Source of the DNA: Eledone cirrhosa
Lineage: Eukaryota
Reading direction: 5' to 3'
Assembly: GCA_964016885.1 (NCBI GenBank)
Contig: OZ024743.1
Location: 268,460,001-268,524,000, forward strand
DNA length: 64,000 bases
The notes under the pieces are model-generated. The model did not search any database, was not told the origin of the DNA, and saw only the letters and a list, made by a program, of their open reading frames with translations. A program made the translations under genes and the position numbers. This document shows, one piece after another, positions 12,479 to 62,146 of the stretch; position 1 is the first letter of the stretch, and every line of letters begins with the position of its first letter.

Positions 12479-12981
<503 letters not shown>

Positions 12982-12989
12982 TTATATAT

Positions 12990-15325
12990 TTATAATCCCT
13001 CCGATAAGTCGTTCGACCTGCGACGAGTCCACGCCACGACTTTACCATTTAATAAACGCACGCAATTGCCGTCGCAGGTCGATGAACAAACAGAAACACA
13101 ATTTAGTATAGCTAGATCCGAACTTAGAAATATTATAGAACAGTATAGCAAGAAGCATAATAGAATGGAGGCCAAGCAACTGGGAGAAAAATCTGCAAAT
13201 GGCTTGCGTAAGCTCATGCAGCGCTCGCGTAATGGAGAGATAGCATGCTTTCCAACAGACAAGTCTGGCAGAATGTCGGTTGACAGCCTGCCAAACTACA
13301 TCCAGGCAATGCAACCCCACATCACTAACACAAGAGAGGTAACACCATAGGAGCATGAGGATAGAGAAAAAGCCCTCAATGCCCATATGGTGATGTGGAC
13401 GAATATAATGCAGCCCAACAAAAGGACTGCCAACAAGTTCCAGGCCTGGAACAATGACGTGCCGGCGTTGTATGGGCTTCGAAAAGACCATAAAACGGGC
13501 AGTGACCCTGTCACGGGACCACCAACACGGCCAGTCTGTGGAGCTAACATTGCTAGTAACTACAGACTGTCCTACTTCCTCTCCCTGATCATACGCCCCA
13601 TCATTGAAATGTCCCCAGATGTATGTGACAGCACGGAGGACCTCCTCAGCAGAATCGGCGAGAGTAACCGATCTAGGGACCTAACAAACTGCATAATAGG
13701 TAGTATGGATGTTGTGTCCCTGTATCCATCTATTGACGTGGATTTTGCTGTGGAGAAATGCGTAGAAATGATCAGTGAGAGCAATGTTGAGTTCCGTGGG
13801 ATTGATACCAGTGAGCTGGGACTCCTACTTACACTTACCTATAGTAATAATCACCTAGACACATATGACCTTAGCAACCTGTGCCCTACAAGACCAGCAA
13901 GAGGCAGACCACCTACCATTACCTCAATGGCCAAGAAAACCCACACAGATAGATGGAACGGGTGGACCAGAGCCATACGGACACCCGAAAACCACGATGA
14001 ACTGAAGAAAATGATTGCACATGCGGTAGGGGCCAGCATAAAACTAACCCTTAAGGAACATATGTTCAAATTTAATGGAAAAACATATGCCCAAGAGGAA
14101 GGAGCAGCCATTGGTGTTAGCATTGCAAGCGACATAGCTAACTTATTCATGGTATGGTGGGACAGTAGACTTATGCTTAAACTCAAAGAACAATTAGAAG
14201 ACCCCTTAACCCTGATAATGTACTCCCGCTACGTTGATGATATAAACATCGTAGTTAAGACACCCCCACTAGAGAACAGTCAGGAAATAGAGAAAAACAC
14301 AATGGAAAGCATCCAGCAAATAGCTAACTCCATCCACCAGAGTATTAGAGTTACTATAGACTACCCAAGTAAACACCCCAACCATCGATTACCTGTACTA
14401 GACACAGAGCTCTGGTTAGATACCATTAATAACAAAAAACAAATCCTCCATTCCCATTATGCCAAACCCATGACTTCCAAACATCTGATCCACCGAAACT
14501 CGGCTGTTTCGGACCATACCAAAATCAACATACTGATTGCGGATTTGGTACGGGTGATGAGAAACGTGTCCCGCATGTGCAACCCCGAATAACTAGAGAG
14601 ACACATACAACACTTCATCCACCGTATGCAGTTCTCTGGTTACAATCAGAGAGACAAAATCAGAGTTTATAGAGGAGCCAGAACCAAATGGGAAAAAATG
14701 GTAAATAACGACATAAATAGGACCTGCCCCTTGTATAGGAGCAAATTTTGGAATAGAATAGAAAGAACTAGGAATAAGGCTAATAGAATAAACTCATGGT
14801 ATGATAGCAATAAATACCAGAGTGTAATGTTCATCGATACAACCCCTAGAGGTGAATTAGCTTACAAATTTAGAAGGGCCCTAGATAAACATAAACTCAA
14901 TATTAAGATAGTAGAAAGACCAGGTACCTCCGTCAAAACACTTATTAGCAAGACATACCCTTTTCAAAGACCCCCATGTATAGATAAGAAATGTATAACC
15001 TGTAAAATAAGCCCCCATATTAACTGTAAAACTAGAAATGTAGTGTATAGCATAAGATGTACTGAAGGACAATGTAGAGACAAAAATATAGTGTACATAG
15101 GTGAGATAGCTCGTAGTGTAGCGGAACGGATAAATGAACACTGGCGAGACCTTCAAGATAGTAAAGAATCATCTGTACTCTACCAACACGCTAAAATAGA
15201 ACACAAGGGTAAATTAGAGAACATAGAAATAAAAATAGAATCTACACACAGAAAAGACGCAATGTTTAGACAAATCACAGAGGCAATAAACATAAAATAA
15301 TTACAACCAAAATTAAATCGATGAT
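12990..15325 (+). mobile_element. Penelope-like retroelement, RT + C-terminal GIY-YIG, disrupted (family B, copy 1)
   Basis: In-frame ORFs 13066-13350, 13387-14592 and 14626-15300 separated by single stops; DKS motif, YGLRKDHK..RPV, SMDVVSLYPSI, QEEGAAIG, RYVDD, CxxxxCxxC..C linker, VVY..C..YIGE..R...R..EH. Confidence 0.93.
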
Positions 15326-20622: not shown

Positions 20623-21834
20623 AATTCCATATATGGTCAAACAGATAATCACCGGGATTGGTCACATCACAAGTTAGTAGTAAATCTGTGGTGGCAAATT
20701 GGTGGGTGAAGGGGTCGCTGAACCTGCCGGTAGGAGAAAAGGTGAGAGGAGGTTGAGTAAACCCATTCATGCGTTGGTAGTGCCAGCTACAGCTGGGTGT
20801 GAGGTCAAAGAAGATACTGGGGAGGGGGAGGGGGAGGAAGTCGAAACGGTAAGTAGAACAATGACGGGTAAAACTATAAAAAGTACTGAGAGTGAAAAAA
20901 AAAAAAAAAAAAAAAAAAATAAGCAAAGTCTGGTTACTAAGACTTAAGTCTCTCGCTATTGCTAGGCTAAAGAAATACATAAATAAATAAATAAACAAAT
21001 AAGTGAATAAAACAATAGATAAATAAATTAAAAAAAATATATATATATTTATATATATATAATGAAGAATAAAAAATAAATAAAAATAAACTAGGTGGGA
21101 CGGAAATAAAGGGACCCTTATACGAGGTATAAGTGCGTGTATCGTACGGTGACGGGTCAACAAAGGGGGGGGGGGGCAAAATACTAAAGAGACTACCACG
21201 AAATAATAAAGGTTTCTACCCCAATCACAGGGCCAGCAACCACCCAGAGCAAGAAAGTAAACTAGTACGAGAATATAATTCAGGGTCCCGCAAAAAAATA
21301 CTCGTGCTAACTCTAAGGGTACCGCCACGAAACAAAAAGTCTTATACAAGCTAAATGAAAGATCGTACGAAGTAAAAGTAAAGAACGGAAAATTAATACA
21401 GAACACCCCCACCCCCCCCACCCCACCCCCCAAAAAAAAAAGGGAAAAAGAGGAAAGAAATACTGGATAAACGAGAAATTAAAGCAAAGATGCCACTAAG
21501 AAATATAGAAGGCACGGAAAAAAGGGACAGCGGTCGGAGAAGGGGGCAAGTATCCGAAGTCTAGCACCTCTGATATAAAAAGCGGAGTCAGCCAAATCTA
21601 TCATAGAATAGGGGAGGGGGTGGTAGTGCTGAAGCTACAAGGGACTGAGGGGCTACCTCGGGTGGGCGAAAAAGACGACGACAAAGAAAGTGAACTGGGG
21701 TAGAAGGACTAGGGAGGGATGGGGGGAAGGAGGAAATATAGAGGAAGCGATAAAAAATGTAAAAGAAGATCTTACGACTCCATTGGCAAGCAGGGGTTAC
21801 CCCTTACAAAATAGGCAAGTGGGGTGTTATAGCC

Positions 21835-23387
21835 CTAGTCTACCCCCCCCCCCCCCCCCGGGTCATTATGGGGTTTGAGCGCGAGGTAAGTCCTACGTAA
21901 TCGGTGTTTACATGCAGTAACCAGTTCATCTTTCTTGTTTAGGAGTTGGTCCGTCGAAAACAGCATTTGTAAAGTTTCCTCCGAGCATAAATTGCACGGA
22001 CGGCGTCCTCCCGTGTAAGAGTTGGCTCTGGACAGTAATTTCCAAGTGAGATCATAGTTGATGTTGTTGTCCTTGAGGTCCCATATGTGGCCCGAAAGTG
22101 TAGTGGCGTGACGCCGGGCCGGGTTTCGGAAGGTATGTCTGTGTTGGTATAGCCGGGTCTTGAAGTCACATGCGGTTAATCCTATATAAGCTTTGTTGGA
22201 GGTGTCCGTGCTCACGTTGCACTGGTAGATCACATTACGGTCTCTGCATCTGTTGTCGAGGGGGCAACTGGATCTATCTGGACAGTTGCACCTCCTGGTC
22301 GGCTCTCCACTGTTATTTAGGTTGTTTCTTCCATCGGGGTTGAGTTTTTTGTTGTTGGAGGAGACGATGTTTTGTGCGAAGTTAGGTGTAGTGCTGTAAG
22401 AGAGTTTGATGGTATTTTTGTTAATTATGTTGTGGTAGCGGTGTTGTGGTGGGAAGTGTTTTTCAATGAGCCTAAAGAAAATTTTCCCGATGGGAGTTGT
22501 CACCTCGGCGTTGTGGGGAAGATTGAACCATGTTACATTGCGTGAGCGGCGGTGTCGCCTGCTGGTTCCGCTAATGGGAGCTGGACAGTAGGATATTTCC
22601 TCCCGGAAGCCACTCCGCTTGAGGGCCTGAATGTAGTAAGGCGCATATTCATCGAATATCTTCTCATTGGCTGACAAACGGGATATGTTTTTGACCAGGT
22701 TGTTGGTGATGTTCCTAGGATGGTTAGATCGGCGGTGGATGTAGTGCAGGTTGTCATTGGGTTTCCTGTATGGGTAGTACAGGTCATTATTGAGATCGAG
22801 GGTAACGTCCAGGAAATTAACTCGTGTCTGGGACGTTTGTAGGGTTATTTTAAATCCCCAGTCGCGGAAGAAGCTGATTAATTGTTTACGGACCCGATCT
22901 GTACTATTGGGGTTGTACCCTTTAAGGGTAAGGAGCCCATCATCACGGTACAATCCACCACCGAAGGCAGGAAACATATCGGTGAGTTTGGCTATAAGGA
23001 ATAATCCTATAAGATCTGTAACCTCCGCCGAATGCGTAGCGCCCATGCTGACGTCGAAGGGTGAGTCGGGAGCTCTTTTTATCCATTTGGAGTTGTCAAA
23101 GAGTAAGACTGTCTTCCTGGCGTGGAGGATGATTTTTCTTTCCTGGTCGGTGATGGGCACGAGTGCTTCGGCGAAGTCCAAGGCGGCAGTAAGTAGCGGT
23201 AATGTGATAGAAGCATAGTAGCTCTCTATGTCGAACTGGATAAATTTAGTGTCTCGTTTATCCTCCATATTGCTGAACCATGAGATAACTTCCTGGGTGT
23301 TGATCCATAGGCTAAGTCGGGCGAGTTGCTTGACTTTTGGTATCACGCGGTCTAGGATTTTTTTGCTGATTCTCCGTATGTCGGACT
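21835..23387 (-). pseudogene. 5'-truncated Penelope-like RT + GIY-YIG reading frame (open over ~515 codons)
   Basis: QFDIESYYASI, FDVSMGA..SAE, GLYRDDG, VNFLDVTL, YIHRRSNHP, CNC..CPL...C, VIY.C..YIGLT..FKTR..H, CNLCSEE; frame continues to 23387 (SDIRRISKKILDRV), where the inversion starts. Confidence 0.92.
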
Positions 23388-23755
23388 TTTTTTGGGGGGG
23401 GGGGTTCTGTATTAATTTTCCCTTCTTTACTTTTACTTCGTACGATCTTTCATGTAGCTTGTATAAGACTTTTTGTTTCGTGGCGGTACCCTTAGAGTTA
23501 GCACGAGTATTTTTTTGCGGGACCCTGAATTATATTCTCGTACTAGTTTACTTTCTTGCTCTGGGTGATTGCTGGCCCTGTGATTGGGGTAGAAACCTTT
23601 ATTATTTCGTGGTAGTCTCTTTAGTATTTTGCCCCCCCCCCCCCCCCCTTTGTTGACCCGTCACCGTACGATACACGCACTTATACCTCGTATAAGGGTC
23701 CCTTTATTTCCGTCCCACCTAGTTTATTTTTATTTATTTTTTATTCTTCATTATA

Positions 23756-23786
<31 letters not shown>

Positions 23787-24186
23787 TATTTATTTATTTA
23801 TCTATTGTTTTATTCACTTATTTGTTTATTTATTTATTTATGTATTTCTTTAGCCTAGCAATAGCGAGAGACTTAAGTCTTAGTAACCAGACTTTGCTTT
23901 TTTTTTTTTTTTTTTTCTCTCAGTACTTTTTATAGTTTTACCCTTCATTGTTCTACTTACCGTTTCGACTTCCTCCCCCTCCCCCTCCCCAGTATCTTCT
24001 TTGACCTCACACCCAGCTGTAGCTAGCACTACCAACGCATGAATGGGTTTACTCCACCCCCTCTCCTCTTTTCTCCTACCGGCAGGTTCAGCTACCCCTT
24101 CCCCCACCAATTTGCCATCACAGATTTACTACTAACTTGTGATTTGACCAATCCTGGTGATTATCTCTTTGACCCTATATGCAATT

Positions 24187-25552: not shown

Positions 25553-26727
25553 CTGCTGCCAGCACCTTCTACGCAGAGGGCTGGGCATGACGTGGCTAAT
25601 GATGCGCAGACATGCGTTGAGGCTGCGACATCTCCCGATATTCTGCCTCAATGGTGAACAGGTGTGGTCGCCGTTTATCAGATGGGCCTTTCCGCAGCTC
25701 ATTCCTTTGACTGAGCTGCAGTCCTGGGTCAAGAAGAGACAGAGACTGGGTGGCTGGCACCTGGAATGTTGCCACTGCTCTCTACCAAGCGGGCAATGCG
25801 ATTAGAGGAACTTCCACTCTCGAGTTCTATAGAGGATTAGTGGTGGGCAAGTGCGATGACGCACTCGGAGAAGCTTTGGGCCTCGACGAAGTCGAACTGA
25901 CCAGTCTGTACCGGAGGACTTTTGGGCCGGGGACGATGGACAATTTCCAGAAATCCCTCGCTTGGCAGTGCTACCAGGGGGCACTGCCGGTTCGGGATAA
26001 ACTCTACAGACACGGAAGTGCAGTCAGACGGATCTGGCCAAGATGCGCACAGAACTACGAAGCCGTTCTGCACGCACTTGTCCAATGTCCGTGCATTACT
26101 GACTTGTGGAGTTATGTCGAACAGCTACTGTCGCGTGTGGAACGAATCCGGCTATCGGCCGAGTCCATAGTGAAGATCGATCCACCGCCTTCCTTAGGTC
26201 AGGAAGAGCAGGAAATTTTCCTGTCTGGTGGCAGTTGCGAAAGAGGTTATATGGTGGACCAGGTTAAAAGGACTGAAGACAGACACTTTTCTCTTCGGCC
26301 AATCCCTCTTCAACTTTTTCAGGTTTCACCTGGAAAGGAAGGTGAGGGTGGAGAGAGAAGGCTTCCCCCCAGTACATTTGCTAAAAGGTGGGTGAATGTG
26401 GAGAGAATGGCTCCTGTGAATGGGCCTACTCTGACCATGCGCCTATAGGCTAGCTAACTTGAGGAGAGGGGTGCTCTCCCTGGGTGCCCTAGAAGCGCAG
26501 GGTGGTTCAGGATTGGTGGGGTACCCGAGTCAGCCCAGGGTCGTCCACTCCTTATCGGGGAATTTATTTTGTTATATTTATGCATAGTTTATTTTGCATT
26601 TTTATATTTTCATTGTTAAATTAGTCTTGCCATTGTGCACTTTTACTCGACCTTATTGTAAACCCCCACTGTCCCTGTTTTGTATTGTCCCCTACATGTC
26701 GGCCCTTGTGGCTAATAAATGAAATCA
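25553..26727 (+). mobile_element. L1/Tx1-clade LINE 3' fragment (post-RT region, CCHC zf-RVT, 3'UTR)
   Basis: GLGMTWLMMRRHALRLRHL, W..YQGALPVRDKL.RHG....PRC....E.VLHAL..C; AATAAA at 26714 then (ATT)n; frameshifted; (ATT)n also on the 5' side. Confidence 0.8.
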
Positions 26728-26829
26728 TTGTTATTATTATTATTATTGTTACTACTATTATTACTTTTTTTTCTTCTGCCAATTCAATGATGTTCCAGAA
26801 CAATATAAAAGAGACAATTGTCAATTTAG

Positions 26830-29800
26830 GTTCTGGAACAAAAAAGATAATTGGCAATACGGGAAGGGGCCCCAGGTTATCACAGCCTGGGCCCGCTCGT
26901 CATCGTGCCATTGTAATTCAGCCAAACAAGGCATTTAGTCTTGGCTGCTGGAACGTACGGAAGCGTCCTGAACGAAGGACCGCTCTTGTTGCAAAGGAGC
27001 CTCGACGTTACGATCTTGACATCGTGGCTTTATCTGAGACGAGGTTAGCTGGAGATGGCCATCTTACAGAATTTTGTGGAGAATATACATTCTTCTGGAA
27101 AGGAAGAGATGAATGAACCAGAAGAGAGGCTGGGGTAGGATTTGCTGTTAAGACTGTTCTTGTGAATAAATTAGAAGAATTCCCAGTAGGGATTAGTGAG
27201 CGTCTTATGTCCATGAGAATTCCGCTGAACAAAGGAAGATATGCGACGCTGGTGAGTGTGTATGCTCCAACTATGAATTCTGTCGATGAAGAAAAAGTGT
27301 CCTTTTACCATGCCTTGAAAGGTGTTTTAAGAAATATCCCTCAGGCAGACAAAGTCATCGTGCTTGGTGAATTTAATGCTAGAGTGGGTCGGGATTTTAA
27401 CACATGGAATGTAATCGGAAGGCATGGGGTGGGAAAGTGTAACAACAATGGTATGCTCCTGCTGCAGATGTGTGAGGAGCTGGATCTGTGTGTTACCAAC
27501 ACCATATTCCAACAAAAGAACAAATTCAAGACCACATGGATGCATCCTGCATCTAAGGAATGGCATCTTTTGGACTACATCCTAGTCAGGATGCGTGACA
27601 AACAGGATGTGCAGTGTGTTCGTGCTCTTCGTGGAGATGAGTGCTGGACGGACCACCGCCTGGTACGCGCAAAAGTGAAACTAATCACTAAACGTAAAAT
27701 CCGGGCTCCTGGTGTTGCCCTGCCCAAAAGATTGAATGCTGCTCGTCTTAAGGATAAAAATGTGAAGAGGATATTGGATGAAGAGATGCAGGCTGCAGAT
27801 CTTGGTGAGGATTGGCCGACCCTTAAAAAGTCGGTTTATGATGTAGGCAGGCGTGTTCTGGGATTGATGCAGAGAAAACAGCAGGACTCTTTTAATGAGA
27901 ATGATGTACATATAGAAGACGTGTTGGCTGATAAGAGGCGTGCTCTGTCACGCTACTTGACGGCAAAACTACAGGAGAGGAATACGTTGCATGAGGAACT
28001 CAAGGATGTAAAATCACGTGTTAGGCGGAGTCTTTCTCAGATGAAGGATCACTGGTGGAGTGAGAAGTCTGGTGAGATACAAACTGCGTCAGATTCCAAT
28101 AACACAAAGCAGTTGTACAGTCTCTTGCGTGAGGTTTATGGACCGTCTTCTTCTCTGGTGACACCGCTTCGCAGCAAGGATGGCAAAGAACTTCTTCGTG
28201 ACTCACAAGGAATGCTACGAAGGTTGCGAGAGCACTTTGATGATCTTTTGAATCAGCCGTCTGTCGTCAGTGAAGATTTTCTCAATCTCATTCCAGAAAG
28301 TGCTGTGAAAGTAGCTCTCGCAGAACCTCCGACGCTTGTGGAGGTTGCACTGGCTATCTCGAAGCTGAACAGTGGAATGTCTCCAGGTATGGATGGCATA
28401 CATGCTGAGCTCCTACAATATGGTGGTGAGAGACTCCTGCAACATGAAGATGTTGCAGGAGTCTCTCTTTGTTTGGCAGGATATGGGTTAATGAATCCGT
28501 ACATGAGGACTGGGGAGATGCAGTAATGGTGGTCTTGTACAAGGGAAAGGGTAACAGGAATGATTGTGGGAACTACAGAGGTATATCATTGCTTTCTGTC
28601 GTAGGGAAAGTTTTATGTAGGGTGCTTCTGGACCGACTGCTGACAGACATTGCAGATTGTGTTCTTCCTGAAAGTCAATCTGGTTTTCGTGCTGGACGCG
28701 GCACTACTGATATGATCTTCTCAGCTAGACAGCTCCAGGAGAAATGCATGGAACAAGGTTTGGATCTGTATCAGGTATTTGTCGATCTGACAAAAGCTTT
28801 CGATACTGTTAACAGAGATGCATTATGGAAGGTTCTCCAGAAACTTGGTTGCCCTGATAAGTTCCTTGCTTTAGTTAGGTCTTTCCATGACGACATGAAG
28901 GCTTGGGTTAATGTCGGAGGTAACATGTCGGAGCCTATCTCAGTAAAAAATGGAGTGAAACAGAGGGATATTCCAGCACCGACCCTGTTTGCCATATACT
29001 TTGCAATGGTTTTCTGTATTGCATTCAGGAATTGCGAGTATGGTGTTTACATCCGATATCGAACCTCAGGCAGCATATTTAACATCAGGCGCTTTGCTGC
29101 AAAGACAAAAGTATTTACATTAATTATAAGAGACGTCTTGTATGCAGATGATTGCGATCTTGTAGCGCACACAGAGAGTGATATGCAGCACATTTTGAAT
29201 GCATTTTCTGACGCTTGCACTGCCCTGGGATTGACTGTCAGTCTTAAGAAAACCGTCGTCATGTACCAACCTACCCCTGGTAAGCAGTACAGTGAACCGA
29301 ATATCTATGTGTATGGTAAACGACTTGGAGTGGTTGATCAGTTTGTCTACCTGGGAAGCGCTGTCAATCGATACAGCAACCTTGATAGTGAAATCTCACT
29401 TAGGATTAGGAAAGCAAGTGATGCTAGAAAGGCGACTCTGGGGTCAGCGAGACATATGCAAGAGGACAAAGTTAAAGGTGTACAAGGCATGTGTGCTCTC
29501 TTGTCTTCTTTATGCCTGCGAGACCTGGGTCACATATCGACACCACCTTAAGCAATTGGAGCGTTTCCATCAGATGTGTCTCAGACGGATCCAGGGCGTT
29601 CACTAGAGGGACCACATCAGTGATGTCGAGATTTTGGAAAGCTTTATGTGTGACAGTATAGAAGCTCTTGTGCTTAAGCAACGACTCCGTTGGAGTGGTC
29701 ACCTTGCCAGGATGAAGGATTCTAGAATACCAAAACAACTCTTTTATGGAGAGTTAGTTAAAGGAAAACAACCGCCACATAAACCAAAAAAGAGGTATAA

Positions 29801-30570
29801 GGATTCCTTGAAAGCCTCTTTGAAAGACGCTAACATCTCTGCTGATACATCGGAAAATATTGCTACTGATCGTAATAAATGGAGAAAGACTGTATATGAG
29901 GGAAAATTTGCCTTTGAGACATCTCGAATCGCATACGAGAAAGTAAAGCGGGATGTGAGGAAGGGCATTGCACTTCCAGACGGCGAGGGTCCTCCTATGG
30001 TGCTGACATGCAGCGTCTGTGCGAGACTCTGCCTAAGCAAAATGGATTCGAAAGTCATCTTCGCAGTCATAAAGTAGGACCACTGGTTGACTACCAGGCT
30101 GCTGTTGGAGATACTACTCATCATGCTTGCCAAGCATATTGTAGAGAATGTAAATCAGCAGGAGGGCTCAAGCGACATGCAAAAGTACATGAACTCCAAA
30201 CACAGCAGACTATTCCCAGTGAATGTTTTGGGTGCCGACTCTGTGCAAGACATTTTAGATCATTGGCTGGGCTAAAAAGCCACATTCGATCGCAGCGCTA
30301 TTAGTTGCTATCGTGTGTGTGTAGATATGTTTATGTGTGTGCGTGTGTGTGTGTATATATATATGTATATGTATATTATTATTGTTGTTGTTGTCGTTGT
30401 TGTTATTATTATTATTATTATTGTTATTAATATATGTATATGTATATATGTATGTATATATATATATATGTATGTATGTGTGTGTATATATATATGTGTA
30501 TATATTTTTTTTTCTCGTGCAATGGCCATACTCGATAATGAGGGGGAAGCCATCATGTATGTATGTATGT
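26830..30570 (+). mobile_element. RTE-clade LINE (APE endonuclease + RT + C2H2 fingers), near full length, disrupted
   Basis: GCWNVR..DIVALSETRL, VSVYAPT, FNARVG, LDYIL..TDHRLV (APE); NYRGISLLS, QSGFR, FVDLTKAFD, YADD, FVYLGS, LRWSGHLARM (RT); stops at 27114 and 29604, frameshifts near 28450, 29425 and 30040; 3' terminus GGCCATACTCGATAATGAG..GCCATCAT(GTAT)n at 30524-30570. Confidence 0.93.
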
Positions 30571-32399: not shown

Positions 32400-33289
32400 T
32401 GTAAGATGTTTTTGTTATGTGTTTTCGATTTTCTGCTTTTTCTTTTTTGGGGGTGGTGGTGGTTGGGGGGGGGGGGGGGGGATCATTGTCGATGTCCCTT
32501 TCGTCTTCACCTCACGATAGGGAGGGCCCTGTGACTCTTTCGGATGATGGTGGTAGTGTATGTTTGTTTGTGCGGAAGTCTATGTGTGTTTTTTGTGTTT
32601 GGAAGAGACAGGGAGATATTTTTCACGGAGTACCAGGGTGGTTTTGTTGGAGTCAGTTGTCGTTGGTGGTCGTGGAAGGGGTGGGGGTTCAGCTGCTGCT
32701 GTTGGTCCTTGTTCTGTCGTTGTTGCTGGTGGTGGTAGTGGTGTTGACGTTGTTGTTCTCTGCTGGTGTTGGTGCTACTGCTGCTGTTTATTTTTCTGCG
32801 TGGTTTTGTGTCATTGATTTTGTAGCGGTTTGGGTAGCACCTGGTGTTGGTAGTATGGGGAACCTTCTGGTTCCCTGCCTTGCATTGAGGGTAGAAAGCG
32901 CTTGCATCTCTATTTTACCCACCCAACTAAAACATGCAAATCCACTCAGCCTGGTAGGCGAATGAAGTCTACGAGTTTGTGGATGTCATCTGGTTTTATG
33001 TAGAACTGTACCTCCACATAAATCCCAGACTATTTCTCTTTTTGTATTCGTGTTTAGCTCCACTAGGACGATGCAGATCAATGTCCAGAAGATGTTTACT
33101 TATGGTGGGATTATTGAAATCTTACCCCTCACTCTCCTTCTTCCGAGATAAGAAGTGTACAATATATAGTTCTATCGCTTAGAGGGACAAACTGAAATGC
33201 CTGCAAACTGACTTGAACTGGCGTTGTGTTGTATATCTGGCCTTATTTCTTCCAGTACTCTCTATATTTCTGTCTGATTTGTTAAAAGG

Positions 33290-33450
33290 TAGGGGGAATG
33301 GCGGTATCGGTAAAGCGTCGGACGCCATACTTCGTGGCATGGAGTTATGTCCCTTTACGTCCTGAGTTCAAATCCCGCCGAGGTTAGCTTTGCTCGATTT
33401 AATCAACTTTCCCCACCAAAAAATGCTGGCCTTGTGCCCATTGTAGAAAT
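33290..33450 (+). mobile_element. tRNA-derived SINE, internally deleted
   Basis: A-box-like TGGCGGTATCGG, B-box GAGTTCAAATCCC, 3' GGCCTTGTGCCCATTGTAGAA; matches 62147-62333. Confidence 0.8.
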
Positions 33451-33812
33451 CATCATCATTTATTATTATTATTATCATCATTATTATTATTATTATAACG
33501 ATTAAATACAATAATAATTATGATTATTATTATAAGAATGGCAATAATAATCGAATAACAGTTTATTTTTTACATAATAATACCATAATACCATACAATA
33601 AGGACAAGCTTTCTGAATATTATAAAATAAATAAGAACGATTGAAGAAAAACTGACGAACAATGTTTGAATAATTTTAAATAACTAAATAAATAAATGCA
33701 AGAAAAATGTAGAAATATAGACATTTCTATTTAGATGAAATTCGAAAAAAACATCTTTTATTCGTTCATTTATATAAGTGGCAAAGGCTTCATAAACCGC
33801 TTTTAATTTTAC

Positions 33813-33851
<39 letters not shown>

Positions 33852-34025
33852 CATTTATTTTAACCCGATCGTTGATGCTGTTGTTGTCGGTGATGGTGTT
33901 TTCCAATTTTTTGTTTTTGGCTTTTATTAACCACTATTATATATTTTTCTTTTCTCCCTTTTTAATGACAGCGAAGACTTCGTACATTTTCATTGTTAGT
34001 GATGGATAAATTTGAATGAAATTGA

Positions 34026-34094
<69 letters not shown>

Positions 34095-34268
34095 GGGGAA
34101 GAAGGGAAGAAGACGCACGAGGTGACGGAGGTCATGAAATCGCTCCCGTAAGTTTTGAATTTTTAACATATTTAAATCATTTGTGAAATAACAACTCTTA
34201 GTACAAATGCTACGTAAAGCACCCGGCTTGAGCCCCAAAAAATTCGGACCCAAAATATATTGTTATAA

Positions 34269-34935
34269 GGCTCAAATATTCAAATGTTCAACTTTGTATT
34301 GTACACTGTATATCCAAAAAAAAAAATGGCTATAAATGGAAGAAGAAGAACCCCCCCCCCCCCTCCTCTCCTCTGGCTACACTATATAGGACAGCTAAAC
34401 TCACCAACACCAGAAACTAGATACACCGCCCACCCCATCATCTGTGTACACTAAACACAACAGCATTTTCACCTTCACCGCCACCGCTCACTACGGCCAT
34501 CATTGCCACCGCTGTCCCATCACCGCCGCCACCACCCCCTGACTCCTTCACTGCTGCTGCCACCGCTACAGCACCATCACTACAGTAATACGGCTCAAAT
34601 ATTCAAATATTCAACTTTGTATTGTACACTGTATATCCAAAAAAAAAAAAAAAAAAAATAAATAAAATAAAATGGCTATAAATGGAAGAAGAAGAACCCC
34701 CCCCCCCTCCTCTCCTCTGGCTACACTATATAGGACAGCGAAACTCACCAACACCAGAAACTAGATACACCACCCACCCCATCATCTGTGTACACTGAAC
34801 ACAACAGCATTTTCACCTCACCGCCACCGCTCACTGCGGCCATCATTGCCACCGCTGTCCCATCACCGCCGCCACCACCCCCTGACTCCTTCACTGCTGC
34901 TGCCACCGCTACAGCACCATCACTACAGTAATACG
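34269..34935. repeat. Near-identical tandem duplication (34269-34591 and 34592-34935)
   Basis: GGCTCAAATATTCAAAT..CCATCACTACAGTAATACGG repeated; units differ mainly in poly-A/poly-C length. Confidence 0.9.
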
Positions 34936-35505
34936 GTCGCATCACCGCCACCGCTGCCTCGGTATCGACATCACCGCCACCACTGTCTCAGTATCGCCAA
35001 CGCCGCTAGTCTCTGCTGGCTACCACTTCCACATTATAGAATTCCTACTACTAACAAAGAGGAAGGCATCAAAATATATAGATAGACTCAAAAGAAAAAA
35101 GAAAAAACAAACAACAAAAGCAGCACAGCAACAACAGTAAAAAACGAGAAAAACAGAGAAAAACAAAAACAAAAAAAGAAACCCCAAAAACGTAAAGAAA
35201 ATAAGAATGAAGAGAGAAGCAGGCGGACGGACAGAGAAGAGGGGGGGAAAAGTAAAACTTAAAAAACAAAAACTAAGTCGGACATTCGAATACTACATTA
35301 CAATGAAACTTATGCTTATTCATTTTTGGGGCCCTTTCTGCCCGTGTGTTTGTTTGTTTATGTGTGTCCGTATACAGCGTGGTGATAATGCCACACAAGG
35401 GCCAAGTGGGATGGCGGATCCACAGATGGCTATGTAAACATACATTCGCCAATCCTCGATAAGAGTGTTTAAATATCGAACATAAACAGTTCGAATAACG
35501 GTGAA

Positions 35506-38500
35506 ATGGAGACTAGAACGTCATGTGACAGACTCTCACCCAACAGGTGCCCCCTGGCTCAGCAGCAGGAACCTGACTGTCAACGAAATACTGCTGATGT
35601 TGGAGGAAGAAGAAGAAGGAAAGGGGCCAGAACCAACTGGACGAAAGAATTGAATAGAACTGTTATGCAATGCTACCTGAAAAGTAACCCCAAGGAGAGG
35701 GGCTACAGGAGACGGATGCATAACATCTGGAACGAGATTGGTTTATTTAAATTAGATGAACAAAAATTGGCCGGGCAGGCTCGGGTAATAAGAACTAATG
35801 GGTGGATAAGCGAGCTGGAACTGGAGGAACTGAGCAGAGAGAATGGCTTGGAGATGGCGGGTGTAGTATGCCAGACAAGCGAGCCGGCGGGAAATGAAGG
35901 TGAGGAGGTCCTGAGAGCGAAGGAACCACCCGAAGCAGACAATGATCTGAATACTGAGATAAATAATACCTGGAACAGAGATACGGCCACTGAGGAGATG
36001 AATGCTGACGGGCTAGGACAAGATTCGGTTGACATCCTAAATTTAGTGGTAGATGAGTTGAACAATGATAGTGGGAGACCTATGAACCTAAGATTTGTAG
36101 ACAGGAAAAAGTTAAAAGAAACAACAGCTAAGGTAAACAAAGTCATCCCATACCTTGAGGCGAGGAGTCTTCACCAGTGCAACAATATCCTCAAAGCAAC
36201 AGCAAATACGGTGAGGAAACTACTTGGTATAAAAGCGAGAGGAAACAACAGACAAGAAAGAGCAGAGCCGTGGTGGAAGAAGCGACTGAGTGGGCAAATC
36301 GGGGAAATGAGAAATGACATAGGAAAGCTTGAGTCACTACTGAATGGGACACTAAAAAACATAGGCACTAAAAATAGACTGGAAATAAAATACAAAACTA
36401 GGAGTAAAAAGCTAAATATTATCATAGAGGAATTGAAGCAACGCATTGTAGCAAAGAGTGCCAAAATCAGGCGATACGAGAACAGAGTCAGTCAGTATAA
36501 ACAGAACCGCATGTTCGACAACAACCAGAAGATGCTGTTTGGACAGCTTGAGGGGAAAGAAAGAGGCACCGACTTGACCCCTGGGGCGGAACAAGCTAAA
36601 ACATTCTGGAGAGGAATATGGGAGCAGGATGTTAGACACAATGCCCAGGCAGGGTGGATTGAGACAGTACAGAGGGAGATCGGTGAGCAGGCACAGCAAC
36701 AGACTGATTTGAGTATCACAGTTGAAACTCTTAAGGGGCAAGCCAAAAAACTAACCAACTGGAAATCACCAGGCCCAGATGGTGTGCAGGGGTATTGGAT
36801 TAAACATTTAACATCCCTCCACCCGAAGCTGACGGCCATGTTCAATGACTGCTTGGTGTCGGGTGAGGTGCCAGAGTGGTTGACAAAAGGTACCACAGTT
36901 CTGATAATGAAAGACCAAATCAAGGGTAATGATGTCACCAACTATAGACCTATCACATGTCTGCCCGTAATGTGGAAACTGTTGACGAGCATTGTGTCTG
37001 AGGAAATCTACCATCACCTCCACACAAACAACTTGTTGCCGGACGAACAGAAAGGATGCCGAAAGAAGTCACGTGGTACAAAGGACCAGTTGCTTATTGA
37101 TAAGATGGTAATGGGGAATTGCAGGAGGAGACACACTGATCTTGCCATGGGATGGATAGACTACAGAAAGGCATTTGACATGGTGCCTCATTCCTGGATC
37201 ACCAAAAGCCTGGAGATCTTCAGGGTGGCAGATAACATCAGACAGTTGCTGGGCAGGAGTATGGGGTCCTGGGAGACAGAGTTGACATCAACTGGAGTAT
37301 CCTTGGGAAGCGTGAAGATCAAGAGAGGTATCTTCCAGGGAGATAGCCTGTCCCCTCTGTTGTTTGTCCTTGCCCTGATGCCCTTGACCATTATGCTGCG
37401 AAAAGTGAGAGCAGGATACAGGTTGGGAAGGGGAGAGCTTACCATCAATCACCTCCTCTTCATGGACGACCTTAAGCTCTTCGGGAAAAGTGAGAAGGAG
37501 TTGGATGTGCTTGTTGACACTGTCCGTATTTTCAGCAGTGATATATGTATGCAGTTTGGTATTGGTAAATGTGGAGTCATTGTGATGAGGAGGGGTAGGT
37601 TGAGCAGAAGTAACGGGATCCAGATACCAACAGGTGAGATGATAAAGGAAATTGACTCTGAGGAAGGATACAAGTATTTGGGCGTTCTGGAGGCTGATGG
37701 CATAAAGAACAAAAAAATGAAGGAATTGTTAAGAACTGAATACATTCGGAGAGTAAGGAGCGTATTGAAGTCACATCTGAACAGCAGAAATGCCATAAGC
37801 GCAGTAAATTCCCGAGCTGTGTCTATTATTAGGTACAGTGCGGGAATTCTGAGATGGAATGTTGCTGAACAAAAAGAAATGGATAGGAAGACTAGGAAGC
37901 TATTGACTATCTACAACATGTTCCACAAGAGGAGTGATGTCGATAGACTCTACCTAAGGAGATCTGAGGGTGGAAGAGGTCTTATCAGCATAGAGGACTG
38001 TGTTCAGATGGAGAAAAACAACCTATACAAATACGTGACCTATAGTAAGGAGCCAATGCTCAGAGCTGTACTGAAGGAGGGGACAGTAGGCCAGGGGATA
38101 CCCAAGGAGGAAATAACATCAAGGAGGAAGAGCAGCCTTAAGGGAAAATCCCTTCATAGTACCTTCTTTGAGAAAACTGAATTTAGAGATCCACAGACAT
38201 GGAACTGGTTGAGAAGAGGAGACCTCAAAAAGGCTACAGAAGGAATGCTAATGGCTGCGCAGGAGCAGGCCCTCAAAACGAAGTGGTTGAAGCACCATAT
38301 CTACAAGGAGGAGGCTAGCCCACTGTGCAGGATCTGTGGAGAGAGAGAGGAGACTGTGGCTCACATTGTGTCCGAGTGTAAACACCTAGCCCAGACCCAC
38401 TATAAGGGCTGGAGACACGATGTGATGGGCAGGGTGATCCACTGGCACCTGTGCAAAGTAAACAATCTACCACATTCTGAGAAATGGTATGAGCATAGGC

Positions 38501-38898
38501 CAGAGGCGGTGATGGAGAACAATCAGGTGAAGGTGCTGTGGGATTTTAGGATACAGACGGACAAAAAACTGGAACACAATAGACCTGACCTGGTGGTTGT
38601 GGACAAAGAAAAAAGATCGTGCCTGATTGTGGATGTGGCCTGCCCGTTCGACACGAGAGTGCAAGAGAAGGAGAGGGAGAAAATTAACCGATACCAGGAC
38701 CTAAAGTGGGAGGTGAAAAGGATTTGGAACTGCCATGAAGTCAAAGTGATCCCGATTGTCATAGGCGCACTGGGGACTATCTCCAAAGGTTTCCAGGGAT
38801 GGTTAAAGAAAATCGGCCCCTTCACGCTTTTTGGAACGCTTCAAAAGGCATGCTTGCTTGGAACGGCAAGAACCCTCCGATACGTCCTGAATATCTGA
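35506..38898 (+). CDS. R4/Dong-clade non-LTR retrotransposon protein (RT + CCHC + restriction-like endonuclease), uninterrupted 1130 aa
   Basis: N-terminal W.KE.N..VM.CY..S.P..RGYRRRM..IW; WKSPGPDG, YRPITCL, EQKG, WIDYRKAFD, GIFQGDSLSPLLF, HLLFMDD, YKYLG, RLYL.R.EGGRGL, CRIC....ETVAHIVSEC, RHD, RPDLVV.....C.IVDVACP..K..RY; short 3'UTR then (TAA)n from ~38973. Confidence 0.95.
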   Translation: METRTSCDRLSPNRCPLAQQQEPDCQRNTADVGGRRRRKGARTNWTKELNRTVMQCYLKSNPKERGYRRRMHNIWNEIGLFKLDEQKLAGQARVIRTNGWISELELEELSRENGLEMAGVVCQTSEPAGNEGEEVLRAKEPPEADNDLNTEINNTWNRDTATEEMNADGLGQDSVDILNLVVDELNNDSGRPMNLRFVDRKKLKETTAKVNKVIPYLEARSLHQCNNILKATANTVRKLLGIKARGNNRQERAEPWWKKRLSGQIGEMRNDIGKLESLLNGTLKNIGTKNRLEIKYKTRSKKLNIIIEELKQRIVAKSAKIRRYENRVSQYKQNRMFDNNQKMLFGQLEGKERGTDLTPGAEQAKTFWRGIWEQDVRHNAQAGWIETVQREIGEQAQQQTDLSITVETLKGQAKKLTNWKSPGPDGVQGYWIKHLTSLHPKLTAMFNDCLVSGEVPEWLTKGTTVLIMKDQIKGNDVTNYRPITCLPVMWKLLTSIVSEEIYHHLHTNNLLPDEQKGCRKKSRGTKDQLLIDKMVMGNCRRRHTDLAMGWIDYRKAFDMVPHSWITKSLEIFRVADNIRQLLGRSMGSWETELTSTGVSLGSVKIKRGIFQGDSLSPLLFVLALMPLTIMLRKVRAGYRLGRGELTINHLLFMDDLKLFGKSEKELDVLVDTVRIFSSDICMQFGIGKCGVIVMRRGRLSRSNGIQIPTGEMIKEIDSEEGYKYLGVLEADGIKNKKMKELLRTEYIRRVRSVLKSHLNSRNAISAVNSRAVSIIRYSAGILRWNVAEQKEMDRKTRKLLTIYNMFHKRSDVDRLYLRRSEGGRGLISIEDCVQMEKNNLYKYVTYSKEPMLRAVLKEGTVGQGIPKEEITSRRKSSLKGKSLHSTFFEKTEFRDPQTWNWLRRGDLKKATEGMLMAAQEQALKTKWLKHHIYKEEASPLCRICGEREETVAHIVSECKHLAQTHYKGWRHDVMGRVIHWHLCKVNNLPHSEKWYEHRPEAVMENNQVKVLWDFRIQTDKKLEHNRPDLVVVDKEKRSCLIVDVACPFDTRVQEKEREKINRYQDLKWEVKRIWNCHEVKVIPIVIGALGTISKGFQGWLKKIGPFTLFGTLQKACLLGTARTLRYVLNI

Positions 38899-38984
38899 GG
38901 CTGCAGGTAGTGGCTTGATATTCAATCCAACGGACTTTCCAGTTAACCAACATCAATGACTGAGATTCAAGGAATAACAATAAC

Positions 38985-39015
<31 letters not shown>

Positions 39016-39047
39016 AATAATAATAATAAAGCAAGATAAATGCAACT

Positions 39048-39084
<37 letters not shown>

Positions 39085-40836
39085 TGGAAATAATAATAAC
39101 AATAATAATACTAATTTTTCACATAATCAAATTGATTAGGAAAAAATAATTCCTGCGAGACAATAAAACGGAATAATGTATACGACATACTTAAAACGAA
39201 TAATTTTAAAAATAAATACAAAAATACACAAAAACACACAACATTTCAACAAGGATTTTGTTGTTGGTTTTATTTCTCCTTAATAAGTTTGTCTTGGTAA
39301 TTTTTTCACTTGTTATTTCTTTTAAATATGTATGTATGTGTGTGTGTGTGTGTGTTTTCTTGTCATGATAGGTTGTTTCCTATTTTTTTCTTATTTTTTT
39401 TTAACCAATATTTCAAGTATTTTTCTTAAGATACAAATTCCGAAATTATTGGTCAACGCTGGGCTTGAAATTATTAATTATCTTTCTGCCTCCATAAATT
39501 TCAGATAATTATAGAATAAAAAATTATAATTTTTCTCATAATTTTCTTTTTCTTTACTCTTTATATTTTTACTTATTTATTTTTGTTTTGTTTTATTTTT
39601 CTGTTACGAAGCATTTATTAAAGACAAATAAATCCTTTGGGGAATCAAAAGAAAATTTTAATGACAATTGCTGCAAATTTGTTGAAAAAAAATACATGAA
39701 GAAATAAAGGGAGCAGTTAACCAATTCATCGTGGTTTATGGCAACGTCTGTTTGTTGCCTCGTTGTTGATTATCCTCCATGTTTTTCTTTTGCGTTTGTA
39801 TTGCTTTGTTTTCCCTAAACAGTTTAGTTTTCTTAAAGTGACCAATTTTTTTAACATCATATTCTATCAAGCATTCAAACTGTCAATTGACGTCTTTGAA
39901 TAGTCACTTATCATAGCCTGTCTATTTCATTCTTTGTTCATATTACATTTCTTATTTGGACCATACATAGAAGTCAATTTATCTTCATTGTATGGTGACA
40001 AAAATTAGAAGGAGAGAGAGAAAGAGAGGGTTGTGTCAAAAAATAAATTAGAAAAATGTATCCCGCAGACAAATAAAATACATATTTCAGTATTTTTATG
40101 TATTCTAACACTAAATTCCTAAATTTTCGTCCGTAATATTAGAGAATTTAATACAATTATTATTTCAGTATCTTATATGTTCGACTGTCACAGATTAGCC
40201 TACAAACTATACTATTGATACGTTGGTTCCAACTGTTCGTCAAACTCATTAGTAACAAACATATTTAGTCAATTATTTTTTTTTTATTTCAAAAACTTTT
40301 GAAAATAGTATAGATGACAGGGGGCTCGTAATACATGGTCCGGTGTTGCCTACTTGAGTTGGAATCTAACCTCTCTACAATGAAATCCCCAGCATAGTCA
40401 GTTATTGTTCTCTGATGTTCAGTCAAAAACATTTTCCATTCAATCGATAATGATAAAAACTTCGTTGCAAAGTTTAGTATTGAGTAACTAAACACTCATT
40501 AACAATTAGAGTCAATCCCATCTATTCAGCTCATCTAACGTTACAACTAAGGGATCTGCCATTATGAACGTGCTAGCTGCAGAAGCCGCCTGGTTGAGAT
40601 GCCCACGAAGCAAGCATTTCTCAATCCTTTCGGTCATATAGTCGCTTGGCGGAACAAATCCCTTTCTGATATTTCCTCACTAGAAATTCAGACTATTTCT
40701 ATTTCCGCTTCTCACAGGTTTGTCCTGCATAGATTGACTTAAAAATGAATTAGGTGAACCTCAAACGCATGAAATTCACCAGTCATGTAGCAAGTGAAAA
40801 TTTCAATAAAGAACAGTATCTTTCTTTCTATATATA

Positions 40837-45948: not shown

Positions 45949-46070
45949 TATATACTAAATATGTATTTCATATGTAATCACCAACTGATTAACAGAAAAA
46001 CAGTGAAAGTGAAAACATCCTTCACTGTCAAACACAAACAGGTACCATTATTATCAATAGTTCGGCTCAA

Positions 46071-46259
46071 TAGGGCGGTGGATTAGCAGTATCGGTAGAG
46101 TGTTGGACGCCAGGCTTTGCAACATAGAGTTATGGCCCTTTATGGCCTGAGTTCAAATCCCGCCGAGGTTAATTTTGCCTTTCATCCATGCGGAGTCGAT
46201 AAAATAAAGTACCAGTAATGTACTGTATAATTGCTCGCCTTGTGCCAAAAGTAGAAACA
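46071..46259 (+). mobile_element. tRNA-derived SINE (Meta-domain-like family), full length
   Basis: A box TAGCAGTATCGG, B box GAGTTCAAATCCC, core GCCTTTCATCC..GGAGTCGATAAAATAAAGTACCAG. Confidence 0.85.
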
Positions 46260-46559
46260 ATCATTATCAACAGTTGAAAAATACTAGCATAGTGGAATGT
46301 ATAGACATAACTTTTTTATGAATATTGATAGTTGGTTTTATTTTTACCCGCTTCAATTTATTTATTCCTATTTTGCCTCGATATTTTACAAATTTTTTTA
46401 CTGACCATTATACGGCTACTTTTACAACTATTTTATGATTCGGCTGCTTATTACTTTTTATTTAATGATACATTAGGTTTAGAGAAAGAATGATGTACTC
46501 ATGCGCAGAGGTGCTATAAAATAGCTCGTTACAAACCATTGTTGCCTACTCGCATGTAC

Positions 46560-47173: not shown

Positions 47174-49495
<2,322 letters not shown>

Positions 49496-49602
49496 GCAAT
49501 GATCAGCAATGATCAGCGAGAGCAAGGTTGAGTTCCTGATTATTACTAGAAATTCTATAAGAATCAAACATTCATGATTTTCAGCACACAGGTGGAGTAC
49601 AT

Positions 49603-49647
49603 GGCTTTCATAAGTACCAATCAGTACGAAACATAGCTCTGTCAGCT
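49603..49647 (+). ncRNA. Degenerate U3-A8 hammerhead (G5 replaced by C)
   Basis: GGCT-TTCATAA-GTAC caatca GTAC-GAA-ACA tagctc TGT-C-AGCT; all three stems form, one core substitution. Confidence 0.55.
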
Positions 49648-49762
49648 TTATCCCCCCTGTTTGCTGAAAATTTAAAGTAAGTGAGACTGTCACTACTCTA
49701 AAACAATAGCGCAAGGTCTTCGAAATGTTTTTAATTAAGATGGAGTGTATTGCAAAATACAC

Positions 49763-49881
49763 TATGTCTATACGTAAATGTGGGGTATAGATGCTATCTC
49801 GTATTAGAACTGGTCTATGTGTGTATGTGTGTGTGTGAGAGAGAATAAGTGGAGGTGTAAGCGTGTGTGGGGGGGGGGGGG

Positions 49882-49916
<35 letters not shown>

Positions 49917-51035
49917 TGTGCGTGTGTGTGTGTGAGGGGAGTGTAAGTATGGGGCTAGATGCTCTATCAAGTTATGAATTACGGGTGGCTGTTGTTGTTT
50001 CGACGAAACAACAACAGCCACTCGCAGAGCTATCAGACGTGAGGGACTAGATATCCAATTAGCCCACTCAGGACCTTCTATACGCGGACAGCTAACCAAA
50101 AGACACTCCACCAGACATGATAACCGCTGCAGGCTAGCCAACTGCCCCATCAACGACGCAGACCTATGCCACCAGGCTTACGTCGTATACAGACTAGAGT
50201 GCGACAAATGCAGCGACTTCTACGTAGGTAGCACCACCAGACCACTCCACATAAGAATAAAAGAACACCTCAATACTAACACTTCCTCATTTAAGAAACA
50301 CCTAGTGAAATGCAAAAACACCGACAAAACCATAACAGTTAGGATAGAAACTAAGGAAAGAAACCTCGGCAATCTTAGAATTAAGGAAGCACTAATTATA
50401 GACAAAACTCAACCACCAATCAATAATAGACTAGAACTCAACACCCAATTCATAACTTGATAGAGCATCTAGCCCCATACTTACACGCCCCTCCCACACA
50501 CTCACACACGCACACACACACGCACATACACACACACACACGCTTACACCTCCACTTATTCTCTCTAACACACACACATAGACCAGTTCTAACACGAGAG
50601 AGCATCTATCCCCCACATTTACGTATAGACATATATTCTCACACTCACACACACATACTTACACCTTCACTCATTTTCCCACACACTTAAACATACATGT
50701 ACAAAACCCCTTTTAAAGGGAAACTACTCTTTATCCACCTAACCTTAACTCTTTGACATTAGAGATAGAACAGATACTCTATACCATTTCCTGTCAGCAT
50801 GACTTGGCAAGCTATTTAGAACACTGGTTTATCCGCTTTACTTCCCTCTGAAGAAGAGATATTATCTCAAAGATTAAGGACATTTAAATAAATTTAAGGT
50901 AAAAGACTAATTGTCAACAATATCTTTTGCATTTGCATTTTATTCTATGTCCATACCTGCTTTGTTTTGGCTTTACAAATACAAACGTTTATACCTCATT
51001 ACACAATGCTTCAAGTGAACGATAAATTCCTCCTA
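49763..51035 (+). mobile_element. Penelope-like element family E: GIY-YIG 3' fragment with inverted 5' arm (no ATG, absent from ORF track)
   Basis: 50004-50460 translates [63 protein letters not shown]...P.IN; 49763-49980 is the reverse complement of 50447-50633. Confidence 0.85.
50845..50879 (+). ncRNA. Degenerate minimal hammerhead in family E 3' region
   Basis: CCT-CTGAAGA-A GAGAT att ATCTC-AAAGATTA-AGG; the G of GAAA is missing. Confidence 0.5.
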
Positions 51036-60249: not shown

Positions 60250-62146
60250 AATTCCAGATATGGTCAAAGTGAAAGTCACAGGGATTGGTCAAAAGTTTGT
60301 AGTTGAGACATAATAATTCTATGATGGCAATTTGTGGAGGGAAGGGGTAGCTAAACCTGCCAGTAGGAGAAAGAGGGAGAGGGGGAGGAGGAGACCCATT
60401 CATGCGTTGATAGTGCCGGCTACAGCTGGGCGTGAGGTCAAAGAAGATACTAGGGAGGGGGAGGAAGTCGAGACAGCAAGTAGAACATGCGCCTTATTAC
60501 ATCCAGGCCCTCAAGCGGAGTGGTTTCTGGGAGGAAATATATTACTGTCCAGCTCCCATTAGCGGAACCAGCAGGCGACACCGCCGCTCACGCCATGTAA
60601 CATGGTTCAATCCTCCCCACAACGCCGAGGTGACAAGTCCTATCCGGAAAATATTCTTTACGCTCATTGAAAAACACTTCCCAATACAACACCGCTACCA
60701 CAACATAATTAACAAAAATACCATCAAACTCTCTTACATCACTACACCAAACTTTGCACAAAACATCGTCTCCTTCAACAACAAAAGACTCAACCCCTAT
60801 GGAAGAAATAACCTAAATAGCAGTGGAGAGCCGACCAGAAGGTGCAACTGTCCTGATGGATACATTTGCCCCCTCGACAACAGATGCAGAGATCGTAATG
60901 TGATCTACCAGTGCAACGTGAGGACGGACACCTCCAAAAAAGCTTATATAGGATTAACCGCTTGTGACTTCAAGACCCGGCTATACCAACACAGACATAC
61001 CTTCCGAAACCCGGCCCGGCGTCACGCCACTACAATTTCGGGCCACATATGGGACCTCAAGGATAACAACATTACCTATGATCTCACTTGGAGATTACTG
61101 TCCAGAGCCAACTCTTACACGGGAGGACGCCGTCCGTGCAATTTATGCTCGGAGGAAACTTTACAAATGCTGTTTTCGACGGACCAACTCCTAAACAAGA
61201 AAGATGAACTGGTTACTGCATGTAAACACAGATTGCGTAGGACTTACCTCGCGCTCAAACCCCATAATGACCCGGGGAGGTAGACTAGGGCTATAACACC
61301 CCACTTGCCGATTTTTTAATGGGTAACCCCTGCTTGCTAAGGGAGACGTAAGATCTTCTTTTATATCTTTTTATCGCTTCCTCTATATTTCCTTCTTCCC
61401 CCATCCCTCCCTAGTCCTTCCACCCCAGTTCTCTTTCTTTGTCGTCGTCTTTTTCTCGCTCACCCGAGGCAGCCTCTCGGTTCTTTGTAGCCTCAGTACC
61501 CCGACCCCCTTCCCTTATTATATGATAGATTTGGCCGACTCCGCTTTTTATAGTAGATGTGTTAGACCCCGGATACTTGCCCTATTATCCGACCGCTGCC
61601 CCTTTTCCGTGCTTTCTATATTTCTTAGTGGTATCTTTGCTTTAATTTCTCGTTTATCAGTATTTTTTTGGGGGGGGGGGGGGATGGGGGGGATTCTGAA
61701 TTAATTTTCCGTATCAAATTTTACTTTTACTTCGTACGAGCTTTTATGTACCTTGCACTAGAACTTTTGTATCGTGGCGGCACCCTTAGAGATAGTATTA
61801 GTATTCTTTTTCGGGACTCTGAATTATTATTTCGTATTAGTTTACTTTTTTGCACTGGGTGGTTGCTGGCCTTGTGCCTGGGGTAGTAACTTTTATTATT
61901 TCGTTTTAGTTTCTTTAGTATTTTGGTCCCTCACTTGTTGACCCGTCACCGTAAGATACTCGGTTTATTACTTATACCTCTTAAAAGGGTCTCATTTTAA
62001 TTCCGTCCCACCTAGTATATATTTTTTTTTTTTTTTTTTAAGCCTAGCAATAGTGAGAGACTTAGGTCGTAGTAACCAGAAATTGTTTATTTATTTTTTT
62101 TTTTTTACATTTAATTGCTTTTTAACACCCAGTATTTTTCTATATA

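Follow-up and report, generated by a model that had tools for sequence, protein, structure and literature searches.

The locus examined here raises the question of whether an intact retroelement ORF flanked by TAA repeats belongs to an element that inserts into such repeats or to one that merely ends in them and, further, where this element begins and how recently it moved. The window, i.e. the whole 64-kb stretch of DNA that was analysed, is AT-rich, animal-like DNA, rich in microsatellites and retroelement fragments, and holds three copies of a tRNA-like SINE that may resemble octopus SINEs, a literature search having given no confirmation of this. A sequence-only reading had proposed an R4/Dong element with a restriction-like endonuclease (RLE) aimed at TAA repeats. 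The domain layout, the predicted fold and the ends of the relatives fit this proposal, the targeting being deduced from the relatives. Thus, the locus most likely holds a Dong-type (R4 clade) non-LTR retrotransposon with a single ORF, one intact and recently inserted member of an abundant family that likely inserts into existing (TAA)n by target-primed reverse transcription (TPRT).

The ORF and its domains

The single ORF (35506..38898, forward strand) encodes 1130 aa without an internal stop and is the longest of the 35 stop-to-stop frames of at least 150 aa in the window, the runner-up having 564 aa; no second copy of the Dong-type element was found elsewhere in the 64-kb window. The motifs that had been read in this only long, complete retroelement ORF (RT, CCHC, RHD and PD..D..K) were all located. 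The reverse transcriptase (RT) domain spans aa 404-727 (36715..37686, forward strand; Pfam RVT_1, E 5e-23; R2 proteins 9nl3 and 9dou, E ~1e-30) and contains QGDSLSP at 611-617 and FMDD at 652-655. The CCHC zinc knuckle (C941-x2-C944-x8-H953-x4-C958) and the RHD motif at 970-972 (together aa 941-972; 38326..38421, forward strand) are invariant across 30 sequences. No APE domain was found; instead, the ORF ends in a restriction-like PD-(D/E)xK endonuclease (aa ~1009-1091; 38530..38778, forward strand), the motif residues of which (PD 1027-1028, D1043, E1058-K1059 and Y1063) align with R2 chain 9nl3, the nuclease stretch alone giving a weak match (E 0.07).

Among 8,000 candidate proteins scored, 505 were homologues, and the best full-length ones were 60-64% identical to the window protein; the nearest proteins overall were at 60-66% identity. 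The exact protein was absent from the protein collection searched, and a single-protein metagenome scan with it gave no match. Of 261 near-invariant columns, the window protein departs from its relatives at 6, none of them catalytic; for the 29 relatives themselves the number is 1-20.

In the structural comparison, an AlphaFold model of the window protein, built from a 30-sequence alignment (mean pLDDT 81.5), had R2 retrotransposon proteins at ranks 1-4 (996 chains aligned; best 9nl2, Z 29.5, rmsd 4.1, 775 residues) and LINE-1 ORF2p just below them (Z 28.1); the alignment with R2 extends through residue 1130. A conserved block near the N-terminus (aa 43-118; 35632..35859, forward strand), folded alone, yielded a confident helical model and is predicted to be a DNA-binding domain of Myb/SANT-like kind. 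Of 48,161 chains, the 50 best include many of Myb/SANT type, with NgTRF (Z 5.6, rmsd 4.7 over 76), Zeste (Z 5.5, rmsd 2.2 over 62), Sap1 and TRF1 in the lead, all at weak scores (Z at most 5.6); Myb clusters of the Atlas scored 0.76-0.86 for the same block, with the Myb_Rap1 cluster (0.86) taken as a lead only. No Myb family was matched when the N-terminal domain was searched against Pfam and PDB profiles. No N-terminal zinc finger was found, the sole C-x1-4-C motif being at 941, and across 30 relatives none of the N-terminal Cys or His residues is invariant. These weak but concordant signals are suggestive of a diverged Myb/SANT-like N-terminus, in agreement with the diverged Myb/SANT domain described for R4/Dong in PMC7998251.

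TAA arrays and the extent of the element

Beyond the stop codon lies a 3'UTR of 74 nt (38899..38972, forward strand; ~75 nt in the sequence-only reading), the start of which shares 20 of 22 nt with the 3'UTR of one relative, L002. It is followed by a 143-nt TAA array (38973..39115, forward strand). The long (TAA)n run that had been noted at this place is thus present, with 47 units, but it is interrupted, showing 72% matches and a longest perfect run of 11 units. A TAA array directly 3' of the ORF is unlikely to occur by chance because only 5 of 246 260-nt tiles of the window carry a sense array of at least 4 units, the element's own arrays counted in. The decay of the 3' array far exceeds the divergence of the element from its nearest version, found as 7 pieces in read run X5 (14 differences in 3,353 nt, 0.42%); hence, the array is likely older than the insertion and would have been present beforehand as the 3' half of the target. 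The further (TAA)n that had been noted upstream, at 34028-34093, is a perfect (TAA)22 (34028..34094, forward strand; purity 1.0) and, judging from relatives with TAA at both ends, probably formed the 5' half of the microsatellite that was targeted.

To score the ends of relatives, an alignment scan of part of a metagenome collection was used, which retained 79 loci from 472 relatives; the ends were scored in relatives at 31-54% identity to the window protein. At the 3' end, defined by (TAA)n of at least 4 units no more than 260 nt past the stop, sense arrays were present in 31 of 50 scorable loci (median 82 nt), compared with antisense arrays in 2 of 50 and a sense array in 1 of 67 control tiles. 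At the 5' end, under a loose rule (at least 3 TAA units within 1,500 nt upstream), 13 of the 22 loci with at least 150 nt of upstream sequence had TAA, and 12 loci had it at both ends, although such counts are not independent owing to near-duplicates (L036/L037, L007/L012, L023/L024 and L050/L066). The other 19 of the 50 have no TAA 3' end, so that targets can switch inside this group; the ends seen among relatives include poly(A) (L023/L024), TTA (L010/L018), TA (L021), AG (L030) and CT (L078). In a midpoint-rooted tree of unlabelled relatives only (52 of the 79 loci, 18 of the 20 top proteins and the window protein), the window protein falls into a group (support 1.0) with P0002-P0004 and P0026 that is separate from the poly(A)/TTA/TA branch; loci ending in TAA are scattered over the remainder. 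By extension from these relatives at 31-54% identity, TAA targeting by the window element's own family is likely.

The sequence-only reading itself had named the case that would count against it, namely, TAA as a mere self-encoded tail, produced by template slippage in a family that inserts with little or no sequence specificity. This explanation is improbable: TAA at both ends of 12 relatives fits Dong targeting better than a tail, the 3' array is more decayed than the element, and (TAA)n is the reported insertion site of Dong in the majority of insects, molluscs and cnidarians (PMC7998251). It draws on the 19 relatives that have no TAA 3' end, on the high abundance of the family and on the 300 nt proximal to the ATG, which no TAA abuts. 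None of 12 loose ends shown, of 408 for the contigs of the family, was made of TAA. The boundary on the other side bears on the same question, and here the earlier span of 35506..39110 stands for the ORF and the 3' end but not for the 5' end, which likely lies at 34095, to judge from read depth and the (TAA)22. Read-contig depth was determined for 34710-39000 in four runs. Summed depth in run X1 is unbroken upstream of the ORF (52,924, 54,599, 29,671, 54,148 (35089-35190 masked), 82,345, 150,961 and 215,002), with ~53,000 at 34710-34997, 82,000 at 35286-35429 and 151,000 at 35430-35573. This continuity, together with the perfect (TAA)22 that abuts position 34095 and the lack of an ORF of at least 150 aa in between, suggests a long 5'UTR. 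Thus, the element is probably 4,878 bp long from 34095, as gauged by depth that covers 34710 onward, with a 5'UTR of ~1.4 kb (34095..35505, forward strand). Alternatively, the same element, with the same targeting, could start near 35248, the stretch 34095-35247 being an unrelated repeat that either came in later, between TAA target and element, or was the element's non-TAA landing site. The pieces of run X5 begin at 35248 and its depth is absent at 34710-35141, contigs of run X8 diverge from the window at 35233 and 35245, and 11 of the 13 relatives with 5' TAA carry it just 183-302 nt upstream of the ORF. However, X1 depth upstream differs by no more than a factor of 2 from that in the adjoining bins, and its steps resemble those seen within the element; the upstream stretch has no other copy in the window; and the upstream parts of relatives L062 and L024 are 651 and 977 nt long. 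A start near 35248 is therefore possible, albeit doubtful. If the host is an octopus, the mean length of near-full-length recent Dong-R4 insertions given for Octopus vulgaris in Table 1 of PMC13282606 (4,192 bp; 4,732,901/1,129) also counts for the long 5'UTR, being greater than 3,725 bp (from 35248) and nearer to 4,878 bp (from 34095).

The presumed 5'UTR contains a tandem duplication of a ~325-345-nt unit, i.e. ~340 nt (34262..34936, forward strand); the units differ by 5 mismatches vs. 317 matches, besides length differences that are mostly in homopolymer runs. A relationship of the upstream 1.4 kb to the GT-rich stretch at 21835-23529 was considered and rejected, there being no match beyond low complexity. 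An Rfam search of 33000-36000 returned only (TA)n noise and no family, ARAGORN found no tRNA-like head of the 5'UTR, and a pattern for the 5' start had 0 matches in the genome contigs searched. For an HDV-like ribozyme, Rfam gave no match, and home-made descriptors, run without a positive control, gave no hit in the region or in any of 10 shuffles. Among six UTR pieces folded, 35376-35505 had z -2.9, and the other five were unremarkable.

By analogy with R2 and Dong biology, insertion would proceed as follows. The protein of the element would bind its own 3'UTR RNA, the Myb-like domain would read the TAA repeat, the C-terminal PD-(D/E)xK nuclease would nick the TTA strand, and the RT would copy the RNA from the nick (TPRT). 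The RT would often stop early, leaving 5'-truncated copies; the window copy would be full length, starting at 34095, its insertion having split one TAA array into the halves that begin at 34028 and 38973.

Abundance, age and occurrence under other labels

Run X1 holds 16,942 contigs of the family, 4,669 of them at at least 99% identity. Its summed depth, which is not a copy number, is ~53,000 at the 5' end and climbs to ~990,000 close to the 3' end, a profile that an abundant LINE with 5' truncation leaves. To assess selection, 40 of 126 variable sites were available. X5 and the window have the same allele, different from the X1 majority, at 14 coding sites, and 10 of the 14 are synonymous, compared with 31% expected (p = 0.002); for all coding sites shown, 20 of 34 are synonymous (p = 0.0006). 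The synonymous excess at these subfamily-marking sites indicates that the source lineage of the window copy's subfamily kept the protein under selection. The element had been called young, which agrees with the 0.4% difference from its nearest version and with the mostly synonymous subfamily differences. On the octopus repeat dating scale given in PMC13282606 (JC 0.09 = 25 My), the window copy would, as a rough estimate, be on the order of a million years old or less.

A recent copy may nevertheless be intact by chance but dead or silenced, in a family that no longer moves, and this is quite possible, although we lean against it. Intactness alone is no sign of activity because the ORF survives 0.4% neutral change with a probability of ~0.6, substitutions only being considered. 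About 6 sites look private to the window copy; half of these are synonymous and none is at an invariant residue. For O. bimaculoides, PMC9115989 describes a full-ORF Dong consensus with no sign of recent activity and, as stated there, no polymorphism found for a Dong. Conversely, the catalytic motifs of the ORF are all intact, and, for O. vulgaris, PMC13282606 counts 1,129 recent insertions of Dong-R4, spread over 5 families. Movement of another kind, namely, recent horizontal transfer of the subfamily among unrelated organisms, is suggested by the distribution of near-identical sequence: of the 24 runs listed, 20 contain 0.18-0.77 of the 31-mers sampled, these 20 belonging to 15 studies and 16 organism labels (no RNA run is among the listed holders), and X5 (label B) carries a 99.6% identical version at a flat depth of ~3, with the window's subfamily alleles. 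Yet, the full family was seen only under label A, and the 16,942 contigs of X1 compare with 7 in X5 and 65 in X8, where, at depth up to 28, X1's allele mix and 3' gradient are echoed. Run X21, which shares sample and label with X5, contains 0.00 of the words, as does X23, which shares them with X10; this is no proof of absence. A Hi-C run under label F yielded 0 reads from 1,938 Mb vs. 11-72 expected for one copy in a genome of 5-0.74 Gb, a comparison that is valid only if the organism is in the run; furthermore, the coded labels may be close relatives. Horizontal transfer is accordingly very improbable. The simplest reading of the near-identical sequence under the 15 other labels is that traces of a very abundant repeat were carried over, although carry-over does not fully account for the flat depth and window-type alleles of X5. 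In a bolder version, a young Dong subfamily that targets TAA and has a 1.4-kb 5'UTR of monomer type, where a short 5' end is usual, would recently have crossed between unrelated animals. This would explain the 99.6% identical copies under other organism labels; we consider it highly implausible.

Comparison with known elements

R4 is one of the five clades of RLE elements (PMC4640811). The features settled here for the window element, i.e. a single ORF, RT, CCHC, RLE, no N-terminal zinc finger, a predicted Myb-like domain and 3' TAA, are those of R4/Dong. Dong of Bombyx mori, DongAg, DongBg and Dong1/2 of Darwinula stevensoni are described as having a single ORF with a Myb/SANT-like N-terminus, RT and C-terminal RLE, no N-terminal zinc finger and (TAA)n at the ends (PMC7998251, PMC3636483); microsatellites are given as the insertion sites of DongAg and DongBg (PMC3636483). 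By comparison with the published description of Dong, the window element differs in that it probably has a ~1.4-kb 5'UTR with tandem units. According to PMC3774820, B. mori Dong self-cleaves at the 5' junction via an HDV-like ribozyme, whereas weak tests found none in the window element. In coleoids, Dong-R4 is reported to be expanded, and a Dfam search to have yielded no distant homologues (PMC8967140); the Dong-R4 elements of O. vulgaris (51 families, 92.7 Mb; PMC13282606) are, by description rather than by sequence comparison, likewise abundant young LINEs.

R2 proteins (B. mori, T. guttata and P. megacephalum; PDB 8gh6, 9dou, 9nl2 and 9nl3) share the RT-thumb-CCHC-RLE architecture and include both the best structural match and the best sequence match among solved structures. 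They are, however, only 18-20% identical to the window protein in structural alignments, and, unlike R2, the window element has no N-terminal zinc fingers and does not reside in 28S rDNA. The solved-structure search returned no R4/Dong protein, all 10 matches being R2 or LINE-1, which makes the window protein a candidate for work on how one Myb-like domain alone recognises a trinucleotide repeat.

The literature already covers Dong elements that target TAA, the Myb domain of Dong and recent octopus Dong copies. Biologically, the element is therefore ordinary, given that TAA-targeting Dong elements have been described, molluscs included. Its practical use may lie in being a natural, intact and compact RT-RLE protein with, as predicted, a Myb-only reader. 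The long tandem-unit 5'UTR, if confirmed, would imply a route to the RNA start different from the ribozyme of B. mori Dong.

Conserved 5′ ends among the relatives

At the 5′ terminus of the element, a conserved motif of approximately 70–85 nt is common to eight metagenome loci (L numbers) with relatives of the window's Dong-type element (L006:41–124, L009:54–135, L012:1–70, L015:56–124, L017:56–137, L019:77–158, L020:1–69 and L035:414–495), and in five of these eight it is immediately preceded by (TAA)n. The inner hairpin is variable, a possible pseudoknot was identified by eye, and two of the 13 predicted pairs show two-sided change. Rfam scans of the motif in seven of the eight loci yielded nothing at the gathering score, and the motif is not present in the window element. 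This motif is a candidate divergent self-cleaving ribozyme.

Several Dong relatives open with a tRNA-like head, i.e. A and B boxes, immediately 3′ of a simple repeat (L005:25–100, L011:10–85, L036:105–180 and L048:84–167; probably also L062). The distance from head to ORF is about 200–380 nt (~650 in L062), and among these loci only L048 passed the Rfam tRNA threshold. These heads would represent either 5′UTRs with a Pol III promoter or SINEs that use the same target as the elements.

Other retroelements in the window

Three copies of a tRNA-like SINE (33285–33500, 46069–46260 and 62146–62335) are ~80% alike; the first terminates in a (TTA/CAT)n run, and (TAA)22, the perfect array upstream of the window element, begins 0.5 kb past it. 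A reverse transcriptase fragment on the minus strand (20900–23920), whose 564-aa frame had no match in Pfam, is presumably Penelope-like. Long inverted repeats, seen by eye at about 20900–21400 and 23410–23920, flank this fragment. Broken Penelope-like elements lie at 12829–15300 (plus strand; weak RVT_1) and 47969–49954 (minus strand; weak RVT_1, GIY-YIG). A broken APE-RT LINE spanning several frames (25711–30077) shows RVT_1 (E = 4e-29) and a weak Exo_endo_phos match, with zf-RVT in its first frame.

A branch with other 3′ ends

In the relatives' tree, L004, L010, L018, L021, L023, L024 and L055 form one branch (support 1.0), whose members, wherever the end could be named, carry poly(A), (TTA)n or (TA)n there rather than (TAA)n. 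This branch possibly reflects a switch of target or of strand.
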